A DNA stretch of 63,916 nucleotides, filler included, from Collodictyon triciliatum (taxonomy: Eukaryota): assembly GCA_043381765.1 (NCBI GenBank). It is 38 parts of 38 records of this genome, joined end to end, with 100 filler letters (N's around TTAATTAATTAA, not from the genome) between each part and the next. Parts side by side here need not be neighbours in the genome. Positions count along the whole stretch, not along the records: positions 53,948 to 55,527 come from JBHJMP010010711.1; 37 more parts are not named here. One strand, given 5' to 3'. Within the stretch, counting starts at the first letter, position 1, and each line of letters begins with the position of its first letter. Shown here in pieces: positions 53,949-63,604 of this stretch. The notes beneath the pieces were generated by a model. It was not told the origin of the DNA. It was given only the letters and a program-made list of their open reading frames with translations, and searched no databases. The translations under genes and the position numbers were made by a program.

Positions 53949-55424
53949 CTAAAGTCGATTGTAAAGAATCCGGATGACTATGACGAAATCAACGATACGG
54001 TTATATTGTGTCATAATTTGGTTACCATCACTTATATGTTTGCAAGATGTTACATATTGAAATCACAACAACTCCCAACAATCGATGAAATGTTTTTTTT
54101 GTACGCTTTAAAGACAGTCGGAGTAGCTTCACAAGATAGACACACAAGATTAAAAATCCAGATATGAGAGATGACATGATGACTTTTTATCTCTATGATT
54201 TTCGATTCCATTTGTCCCGAGAAGAACGCTTTCCATCGGTTGGACTGTCTCATGTATCACCGTACTTGGCGAAGCAAATGTTAACAGCTTATCATAATAA
54301 CATTAACAAACATTCTGTTAAGATATTACTGCGTTTATTAAATCAAACAGTTCCTAAAGATGAGAATATTACGGAAGCTACTAAAAAGGCAGAGTTACCA
54401 AAGTTTAAAAAAGCCATCTTCAAGAAACTCGAAATACCAAAGCAATATAAGGAATGAGCTATAATGCATTTGCATCATATCATCCCAGCGATATGGTAAA
54501 TGGTATCGAATATATGGTCAAAGTCAATCCGAAGTACATTCCATATCTGATTTACATGAATCGCATTTTTTGAGGACATTGCAACTTAACTGTTTCAACC
54601 AATCCCTATAAGAACTAACACTATAATGTCATATTACTCTAGATACTACATGTGCGATAGATATATTAGTAACAACTGGAAAACATTATTAATGAAGAAT
54701 ATATTAGAACGCAAAGAGACCCTATGGGATGAGTTCTTTGAAATCAAATAGAGTGTCTTTCATGAAACAGACTAAAATTTTCAATACATGATTTTTTTAT
54801 TCTAAAAATCTTAGCTGTTGAGCCCGTCTCAACAATCATTTTCAATACATGATACAAACAGACGGCTTGGCGGTGTCATTATTGTTTGAAAATAAGGTAT
54901 TTCAAATTCAAAATTCCAAACATAATCAAAAAACACTAAGAATATGTTTATATAGATGAACTTTCCGAGGAGCAGTTATCTTTATTAGGGAAAATAATAA
55001 TAGTTGGAGTGGATGCAGGCAAGTTTAATTTGGTTTACATGGTGGATGAGACAGGTAAGAAATTACGTTACATGGCACACCAAAGAAGACTTGATAGCAA
55101 ATCTCTTAAAAATCACAAACTACTCTTGCACAATAAAGAAAAAAAGAATGCTTCAGGGATATGCATGGCAACAAATTTTCACAAAGTGTTGTTTCTTTTG
55201 GTCAAATGACTTTTGATGAGAATCAGCGGTTTGAGACATCAAGAGCATCTTTAATCGATTTAGAGACAGAACTGAGTAAACATAATTCATGCACAGTCGA
55301 TTATGAAAAATTTCGAAAATATGTATCTATGAAATCAAGATACCAGATAGAATTTTCCAGATTTTATGAACAGGTGACTTTACGAAAGATGAGGAGACAG
55401 TATGTTAATACAAAAAAACGTTAA
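53949..55424 (+). pseudogene. Fanzor1-type endonuclease, degenerate copy 2 (N-terminal part through RuvC-I, 3'-truncated)
   Basis: LKSIVKN...INDTVILCHNLVTITYMF; YLAKQMLTAYHNNINKH; MIQTDGLAVSLLF; intact RuvC-I IIVGVDAGKFNLVYM. Alignable by eye at DNA level to 3486-4423. Confidence 0.9.
54777..54853 (-). mobile_element. 45-bp retroposed (LINE/SINE 3'-end) insertion with a 16-bp target-site duplication
   Basis: ATTTTCAATACATGAT at 54777-54792 and 54838-54853; the homologous site occurs once in copy 1. The insert has the hairpin TGTTGAG/CTCAACA and ends AATAAAAAA on the minus strand. Confidence 0.8.
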
Positions 55425-55646
55425 CGCGAGCTGGAGACAAGCACGAACTCCGCAAGTCCTTCCAAATCACCGCTCTCTAATGCTTAATATCACCAATAGG
55501 GAGCTATGGATAGGCACACGCGCGGCANNNNNNNNNNNNNNNNNNNNNNNNNNNNNNNNNNNNNNNNNNNNTTAATTAATTAANNNNNNNNNNNNNNNNN
55601 NNNNNNNNNNNNNNNNNNNNNNNNNNNAAAAAAAAAAAAAAAAAAA

Positions 55647-60916: not shown

Positions 60917-60990
60917 CACCCCCGACGGGACTCGAACCCGCAATCGCCGGATTAGAAGTCCGACGCCTTATCCAATTAGGCCACGGGGGC
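60917..60990 (-). tRNA. tRNA-Arg (anticodon UCU), intronless
   Basis: GCCCCCG/CGGGGGT acceptor stem, D-arm TGGCCTAATTGGATAAGGC, anticodon arm TCGGA-CT-TCT-AA-TCCGG, T-loop GGTTCGAGTCC, and a TTTT terminator about 13 nt downstream. Confidence 0.96.
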
Positions 60991-62770: not shown

Positions 62771-63604
62771 ATGGAGTTCCCTGCGTTGGGAAGATCGTGC
62801 GAGTATGCAGAATGCCGGCTTTTGGGTGGGTCTATCATTCCAAAGAACCTGCTGGCAGTGCCTGTGCAGGATAAAAAAAATAAAAAAGGACTTCATTAGC
62901 CCATCAATACAGAAGTTAAACTATTCTCTCTGTCATCCTTTCCACTCTTTTTTCTCCTTTTTTTTTTTTTTGAAAGACAACAAGGCTGAATGATAACTGA
63001 AATTACCTTTCATAGATTTTTTACCGTATCACTGCGACCTTTGCAATAAAACGCTCTGTCATGACCACCGAACGTATGAAGGACACAAATGTACCTCCAA
63101 AGATATCAGAGACACGCGGGTGCCAGTGTGTCCCATGTGCAATGCTCCAGTGGCAGTTAACAAAGGCCAAGACCCAAACATTCGCATGGAAGAGCACCTG
63201 AGTTCAGGCTGCAAAAAGAAACCTTTTCGAAACGCAACTGGAAATCCTCTGAAACATAGCTGCTCTCGTTCGGGTTGTAAACAAAGAGAATTCGTTCAAA
63301 TTGTGTGCAATTCCTGCCAGAAAAACTTTTGCACAAGGTAGTGAATTTATCGATAATGTTGAAAGTGTTTGATAAAATTATGAGACTTTGTACCAAGATT
63401 TTAGGGCACCGTGGTATTGCATCATTCCTCTCTCATTCAAATGTCCTCCTCTTGCCATAACCTCCGTCACTCACCAGGCATCGACTCCAAAGCGAGCACC
63501 AGTGTCCCTCCGCCGAGCGTATTCGCGGTTCATGTCAAAGAACAAGCATGCTTTCATCGGTGCCTATTTCGTCGCGCCTCCTTCACCAATCTGTAAAAAG
63601 CTGA
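62771..63604 (+). CDS. AN1-type zinc-finger protein, ZFAND2/AIRAP-like (complete, 3 exons)
   Basis: MEFPALGRSCEYAECRLL|DFLPYHCDLC...HRTYEGHKC...VPVCPMC...CSRSGCKQRE...CQKNFCT|RHRLQSEHQC...KS*. Confidence 0.92.

Follow-up and report, generated by a model that had tools for sequence, protein, structure and literature searches.

Here we present an analysis of two Fanzor1 pseudogenes in a window of 63,916 nucleotides from Collodictyon triciliatum (assembly GCA_043381765.1), the window being the whole stretch of DNA analysed, made up of 38 contigs joined end to end. Copy 1 lies on the contig at positions 3383-4973 and copy 2 on the contig at 53948-55527 (JBHJMP010010711.1). The two contigs very probably carry old, independently decayed Fanzor1 pseudogenes in an AT-rich eukaryotic nuclear genome, and neither copy can make a protein. 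Taken together, the two copies trace the ancestral reading frame over about 95% of its extent, without restoring the active site. Dead copies of this kind are expected, since Fanzor1 is well described and families of many copies, some of them partial or dead, have been documented; the pair consists of ordinary pseudogenes of a known family and carries little weight alone, hundreds of intact relatives being public. Other records of the Fanzor1 lineage to which they belong come almost entirely from metagenome bins of giant viruses, and multiplication of the lineage in an apparent eukaryotic genome bears on the exchange of RNA-guided nucleases between viruses and hosts.

An earlier note, made from the DNA alone, had recognized both contigs as Fanzor copies, an identity that was borne out and could be narrowed to Fanzor1. 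A 185-residue piece of copy 1 (4018-4572) finds an intact 648-residue protein, here designated P0001, at 59% identity (E 1.2e-59). P0001, an unnamed protein encoded on a 2.6-kb metagenome contig, is the closest intact relative of the pair and is about 58% identical to each copy in a frameshift-aware alignment; all of its catalytic and zinc-finger residues are present. In a search of 1.84 billion representatives, 940 were matched by the same piece at E <= 0.001; a protein search at lengths near that of the query gave no match. Among Fanzor1 proteins of solved structure, P0001 matched those of Guillardia theta (E 2.1e-28), Parasitella parasitica (2.7e-24) and Spizellomyces punctatus (3.7e-23). 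A profile of 46 full-length relatives, 614 positions long and designated A1, matched PpFz1, SpuFz1 and GtFz1 at E-values of 5.5e-104, 2.8e-101 and 2.6e-81, respectively, with the SpuFz1 alignment covering profile positions 16-597. At E <= 0.01 no Fanzor2 or TnpB structure was listed in the A1 structure search, the sole other matches being two LaTranC chains (about 5e-5) over the zinc-finger stretch.

Using A1 to search all stop-to-stop frames of at least 20 residues in the window, we obtained nine matching pieces (E 5.9e-49 to 2.5e-3), all nine of them on the contigs of copy 1 and copy 2 and in collinear order. As judged from these comparisons, the link of the window pieces to characterized Fanzor1 proteins is transitive, running through the A1 profile, and by this route both contigs are assigned to the Fanzor1 family. 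Other searches on the same material gave a weak zinc-finger match only (NCBIfam on the window pieces), no confirmed related DNA (P0001 patterns in metagenome contigs) and 0 matches (a degenerate pattern for the peptide FNLVYMVDE in metagenome and viral contigs).

Each contig was aligned to P0001 by a frameshift-aware dynamic programme. Copy 1 is a pseudogene on the plus strand (3486-4852) corresponding to residues from about 186 to 640 of P0001, with 268 of 463 aligned residues identical; the first 13 residues of that alignment are spurious and fall in a run of A. Eleven disabling lesions were counted, comprising six frameshifts and five in-frame stops (3606, 3624, 3750, 4015 and 4811), and its longest open piece, the 185 residues at 4018-4572, matches A1 at E 5.9e-49. 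The contig starts with a run of 96 A (3383-3478, strand not assigned) which replaces everything upstream of residue about 186, and homology to copy 2 starts at 3486. The run itself could be the tail of a retroposon inserted into copy 1, or a break in the assembly may have fallen at a homopolymer here.

Copy 2 lies likewise on the plus strand (53949-55418), corresponds to residues 26-499 of P0001, and is cut on its 5' side by the contig end; 268 of its 462 aligned residues are identical to P0001, in agreement with tblastn. Its pieces match the A1 profile at E-values from 4.7e-20 to 2.5e-3. The number of disabling lesions is 14: eight frameshifts and six in-frame stops, of which three are in aligned sequence (54455, 54587 and 54749) and three within inserted DNA. 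A 61-nucleotide insertion private to copy 2 (54777-54837, plus strand), bounded by a 16-nucleotide direct repeat and missing from copy 1, holds two in-frame stops (54789 and 54819). In one contig each of three public sequencing runs, X1, X2 and X3, position 54776 is joined directly to 54838. The similarity of copy 2 to copy 1 and to P0001 stops at 55416-55418, and in place of its 3' third stands an unrelated and very abundant repeat (55425-55527, strand not assigned) recognized by comparison with related contigs. Past 55416 the other family members in the public runs continue as copy 1 does, and different DNA precedes the other copies of the repeat that starts at 55425, for which the word depth reaches 2041 in X2. 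No Rfam match was found for the repeat at 55425-55527.

Nine columns of A1 are invariant, among them D364, E555 and D604 (P0001 numbering; 46 of 46 relatives), which stand opposite D383, E541 and D606 of SpuFz1 in the printed alignment; the structural account in PMC10432273 gives the latter three as Mg-coordinating. PMC10711439 gives an account of DPG and a shifted glutamate as signatures and of TDG, in the WED domain, as a Fanzor1 hallmark. In copy 2, the RuvC-I motif reads V-D-A-G (55009-55020, plus strand), with the Asp codon GAT kept at 55012 and an Ala codon, GCA, at 55015. The earlier note had called this motif an intact RuvC-I (GVDAG), which holds for the aspartate; the alanine replaces an invariant proline. 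That proline, P365 of DPG, is present in 46 of 46 relatives, and both copies have alanine at the position; therefore, their common ancestor probably already read D-A-G. The RuvC-I of copy 1 (4015-4029, plus strand) is destroyed, with TGA at 4015 for the glycine, CAC (His) at 4021 for the aspartate and AGC (Ser) at 4027 for the second glycine.

At the RuvC-II catalytic position of copy 1 (4592-4594, plus strand), the rearranged 'Ealt' position directly ahead of the zinc finger, the codon is GGA, glycine, where 46 of 46 relatives have the glutamate E555; this position is beyond the reach of copy 2. As a sequence feature, the glycine is consistent with a dead member of the family and not with a different family. 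The zinc finger and RuvC-III of copy 1 (R-D-F-I-G-A-K-N; 4613-4759, plus strand) keep the CxxC...CxxC pattern and the catalytic aspartate: the cysteine codons are at 4613, 4622, 4688 and 4697, the R-D pair is at 4736-4741 with the aspartate at 4739, an isoleucine at 4745 stands for a nearly invariant asparagine, and the asparagine at 4757 is present. The statement of the earlier note that copy 1 supplies the zinc finger and the RuvC-II/III region holds for the four cysteines and the RuvC-III aspartate but not for the RuvC-II glutamate, which reads Gly. The TDG motif is kept in copy 2 (T-D-G, 54858-54866), and copy 1 reads K-H-G; in the 46 relatives T312 never varies and D313 and G314 hardly do.

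In an all-against-all blastn comparison of the 38 contigs, copy 1 and copy 2 were the sole mutually similar pair. Copy 2 aligns from 54419 to 54792 with copy 1 at 3486-3866 (83.8% over 383 columns), and from 54838 to 55416 with copy 1 at 3851-4423 (86.0% over 586 columns), so that the overlap of about 0.95 kb seen in the earlier note is confirmed as collinear and 84-86% identical. A global alignment of the overlap has 814 matches and 117 mismatches in 931 aligned columns (12.6% mismatched; 66 transitions and 51 transversions) and 19 gaps. As the earlier note also had it, the lesions differ between the copies: copy 2 has TGA at 54455 and TAA at 54937 where copy 1 has TGG and CAA, and copy 1 has TGA at 4015 where copy 2 has GGA at 55006. 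The 19 indels do not coincide between the copies, and the lesions are therefore independent.

At the 297 residues of P0001 to which a codon of each copy is aligned, the differences at codon positions 1, 2 and 3 number 46, 41 and 63; 118 codons differ, 95 with a change of residue and 23 without. This pattern is close to that of unconstrained, neutral drift. Most of the divergence would therefore have accrued after both copies had stopped coding.

The earlier note held that the second copy complements the first and allows a near-complete reconstruction. This is right only in part: the copies jointly span residues 26-640 of 648, and the active site is not restored. Copy 2 does supply the N-terminal region, from residue 26 onward, with residues 1-25 missing. 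Absent from both copies are these 25 residues, which in P0001 are rich in lysine and arginine, residues 641-648 and both ends of the element. For residues 26-185 copy 2 is the sole source, and its frame is shifted at 54144; for residues 500-640 the sole source is copy 1, which there has a frameshift (4555), the in-frame TAA at 4811 and the glycine at the RuvC-II position. The lesions in this latter part of copy 1 cannot be cross-checked against copy 2. The composite lacks the catalytic triad, an outcome that the earlier note had named as counting against its proposal; this applies to the two-copy composite and does not decide the matter for the wider family.

The high copy number suggested by the occurrence of two copies among 38 contigs found support in public runs, for which Logan contigs were used and related pieces were placed at a likeness of at least 80%. 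X1 is a freshwater metagenome, and X2 and X3 are small runs with coded organism labels. The related contig pieces number 281 in X2, 241 in X3, 109 in X1 and 2 in X5; of 30 bins all are covered in X1, X2 and X3 and seven in X5. In X2 and X3, single positions are covered by 5-18 distinct contigs. Many mutually different fragments occur within one sample, and a multi-copy family is therefore supported. According to PMC10530073, Fanzors often occur in multiple copies, and a genome may have as many as 122. Two of the stops of copy 2 (54455-7 and 54587) are replaced by another letter in all or nearly all related contigs, and its 2-nucleotide insertion at 55179 is absent from most of the depth (69.9 of 83.6 in X2; 83.8 of 96 in X3). 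The alternative state for the remaining frameshifts of copy 2 is found in a minority of contigs, among the rows listed (69 indel and 375 substitution rows lie beyond these). Judging from these sequences, less-decayed family members exist in the runs; a full-length intact member is not among the evidence.

We propose the following course of events. An intact Fanzor1 would be a transposon-borne RuvC nuclease whose omega-RNA is transcribed from the 3' end of the same element; bound to this guide, it would cleave DNA of matching sequence. SpuFz1 is among the relatives in which RNA-guided cutting has been demonstrated, and by analogy we infer it for the family in the window. The family would have multiplied to many copies in the host genome, and two of these copies would then have drifted neutrally, gaining different frameshifts, stops and losses of catalytic residues, with copy 1 presumably truncated by the A-run and copy 2 by the unrelated repeat. 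A more extended version, in which the host genome also has intact and possibly active members, the family records a passage of genes between giant viruses and a freshwater eukaryote, and the right end and guide RNA are unlike the viral ones, is possible but in our judgement rather unlikely.

Several points weigh against reading the copies as relics of a multi-copy family in a eukaryotic genome. Pfam recognition of the window pieces is weak, with PF07282 matching copy 1 at 4517-4810 at E 8e-4 and 20 bits, below the cut-off of 26.3, and no Pfam family was found for P0001 at E <= 0.1 with a library scanned without PF26935, its recorded family. The depth of a Logan contig is not a copy number, and no run contains copy 2 itself, the best share of its sampled words being 0.13. 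The reading presumes one individual genome as the origin of both contigs. Furthermore, the third-position excess (63 against 46 and 41) is a hint that a little of the divergence predates the loss of coding in the two lineages. Finally, the closest labelled relatives are viral: the ESM-Atlas clusters nearest to P0001 are 92-100% viral, mostly Nucleocytoviricota, and 193 contig stretches in IMG/VR encode relatives, many of them in metagenome-assembled genomes of giant viruses. P0001 alone gave no match to the viral contigs, and alignment A2 alone worked; the best 80 of the 193 stretches were kept (L001-L080).

These viral relatives would suit the idea that the copies are giant-virus DNA, present either as a viral contig in the assembly or as an endogenized insert, which we consider improbable. 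The viral proteins, 35-47% identical to P0001 among the best 80 of 193, are intact, whereas the copies in the window are full of lesions. In addition, dozens of mutually divergent fragments occur per single-organism run, a right-end motif carried by 74 of 78 viral loci has no match in the window with <=3 mismatches allowed, and the neighbouring contigs resemble intron-split eukaryotic genes. It is very improbable that the genes are in fact intact, with errors of sequencing or assembly, introns or a non-standard code giving the appearance of lesions; the short contigs and the highly fragmented assembly would fit with errors, but the frameshifts number 14 in total, invariant catalytic residues are substituted, and another contig of the assembly keeps a 526-codon frame with one stop, so that errors do not pervade the assembly. 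Introns were rejected as the cause of the frame breaks, the shifts being of 1-2 nucleotides or else the 61-nucleotide insert, which has AT..TC and not GT..AG ends. A ciliate-type code was rejected as well, since TGA, TAA and TAG all interrupt the frames, and P0001 is open under the standard code. There is almost no probability that a single locus, present as two alleles or strain variants, gave rise to the two contigs: they are collinear and similar over the overlap, but the mismatches, indels and insertion private to copy 2 described above place their divergence far beyond allelic variation, their truncations differ (the A-run in copy 1, the repeat in copy 2), X2 and X3 have 5-18 contigs per position, and the disabling lesions are private to each copy, which therefore are not alleles, as the earlier note had allowed they might prove to be, and are paralogous relics of one gene family.

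The 3' tail of copy 1 (4811-4973, plus strand) is where the scaffold of a Fanzor guide RNA would lie, and an omega-RNA at 4814-4950 had been proposed there. None of the tests supported this proposal, and the RNA stays a candidate. The coding similarity to P0001 reaches 4852, so that the candidate RNA region overlaps the end of the open reading frame (ORF). The guanine-plus-cytosine (GC) content is 0.438 at 4814-4950 and 0.448 over the tail, 4811-4973, compared with 0.340 in the coding remains. The candidate folds at -34.5 kcal/mol (z -1.18), a value equalled by 21 of 200 shuffles; the z-score is -0.22 for the reverse strand and -0.92 for the wider stretch 4700-4973. The fold of the candidate RNA is no better than chance. 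In Rfam, the tail of copy 1 has no family, the one match, to a long non-coding RNA, being at chance level (E 0.23).

The viral loci provided a right end for comparison. With up to 6 substitutions allowed in a 26-mer, its motif was present in 74 of the 78 viral loci extending to the C-terminus; it starts between 9 nucleotides before and 114 nucleotides after the stop codon, at least 19 nucleotides after it in all but one locus. The near-invariant end reads GGCGTTTKAAATG...AARGGTGTAA (74 of 78 loci; L003-L079, last ~145 bases, alignment A4). RNAalifold returned no structure from the untrimmed alignment of 62 sequences; 14 of the 62 rows were dropped as outliers (L001, L002, L014, L016, L019, L021, L022, L036, L040, L044, L046, L052, L057 and L060), and after trimming, a structure was obtained from 47 distinct sequences. 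It contains a 3' hairpin which overlaps the end of the ORF and has three pairs with compensatory changes (UA 22, CG 17, AU 6 and UG 2 in one example), and a TTTACA-T-rich stretch upstream which pairs with the right end in a long-range helix (47 distinct sequences). This modelled structure, R1, is a good candidate for the omega-RNA scaffold of the viral elements, and the conserved right end and covarying hairpin could be used as a search model.

None of these viral features was detected at the tail of copy 1. The right-end motif had 0 matches in the window at <=3 mismatches, and nhmmer with the viral 3' profile found no match on the contig of copy 1 and two matches (E 1 and 4.3) on other contigs. 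The covariance model R1, run with filters off, gave 17 matches in the window at E <= 10, the best at 1.2, with none on the plus strand of 4811-4973. By eye, copy 1 resembles the viral loci in an 8-bp hairpin that starts in the F-T-T codons, where the viral hairpin starts as well. The absence of the viral right-end motif argues that the ends of the family in the window differ from the viral ones.

With regard to a carrier transposon, neither contig has a transposase-like ORF, just as the earlier note had reported. Each contig stops within the Fanzor1 ORF or shortly past it. In L019 and L021, the closest viral loci, the Fanzor1 ORF and a divergently oriented transposase share an element of ~3.3 kb (L021:3637-6952; L019:3627-6949) bounded by inverted repeats of 32-33 nucleotides. 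The transposase, 346 residues long with DDE_3 and helix-turn-helix domains, is Tc1/mariner- or IS630-like (E 1.3e-13, above cut-off). Other viral copies are elements of 2.06-2.1 kb without a transposase. PMC10711439 describes Fanzors in association with Mariner, hAT, Crypton and Helitron transposons. By analogy with the viral elements, a Tc1/mariner-like carrier is a reasonable guess for the family in the window.

Among known systems, SpuFz1 (PDB 8GKH) shares with the family in the window the domain order, the D/E/D columns, the CxxC...CxxC zinc finger and the TDG motif, as well as the occurrence of multiple copies, some partial, in one genome; Saito et al. 2023 (PMC10432273) describe 19 full-length copies, partial genes and 134 ORF-less 'ghost' loci in its genome. 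Unlike SpuFz1, the window copies are pseudogenes, copy 1 is without two of the three catalytic residues, and neither inverted repeats nor a guide RNA could be defined on the window contigs; compared with P0001 as a single sequence, SpuFz1 reaches E 3.7e-23 only. The viral Fanzor1 loci of IMG/VR offer the closest context at the DNA level, some of them within Tc1/mariner-like elements, but they are intact and have the right-end motif and the covarying 3' hairpin, neither of which is detectable in the window. P0001, 58% identical to each copy, differs from both in its intact ORF.

The setting of the copies in the window is that of 38 contigs of 1577-1593 bases each, arranged in descending order of size, with joints consisting of N44 + TTAATTAATTAA + N44. 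The contigs fall inside a 16-base size range, and the assembly is therefore probably very fragmented, with a great many contigs. Domains of eukaryotic type are found on other contigs in short, exon-like open pieces: ZFAND2-type C2H2 and AN1 zinc fingers (62997-63338), EF-hand (47749-48048), C2 (12578-12862), TMEM144 (42911-43207) and LRR (17137-17547). These pieces resemble exons of intron-split genes and point to a eukaryotic nuclear genome; we read the host evidence as that of a eukaryotic genome carrying a Fanzor1 lineage common to giant viruses. No Pfam family was found for nine of the 12 long ORFs and 56 of the 62 further ORFs of the window. In an Rfam scan of the whole window, the sole match above the gathering threshold was a transfer RNA gene on the minus strand (60917-60990; RF00005, 65.8 bits).

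Two further contigs have unusual coding features. At 40498-42080, a nearly contig-long open frame encodes tandem WD40 repeats of 45 residues (135 bp), with 85-90% mutual DNA identity and preceded by pentapeptide-like repeats; its single in-frame TAG, at 41457, falls at a position that is variable between repeats. The contig at 13527-15112 is GC-rich (0.50 overall and 0.64 in 14001-15000, with the rest of the set at 30-40% GC) and its two strands carry long open frames that overlap, without a match in Pfam; the contig may be a stretch of foreign DNA or a repeat rich in GC.

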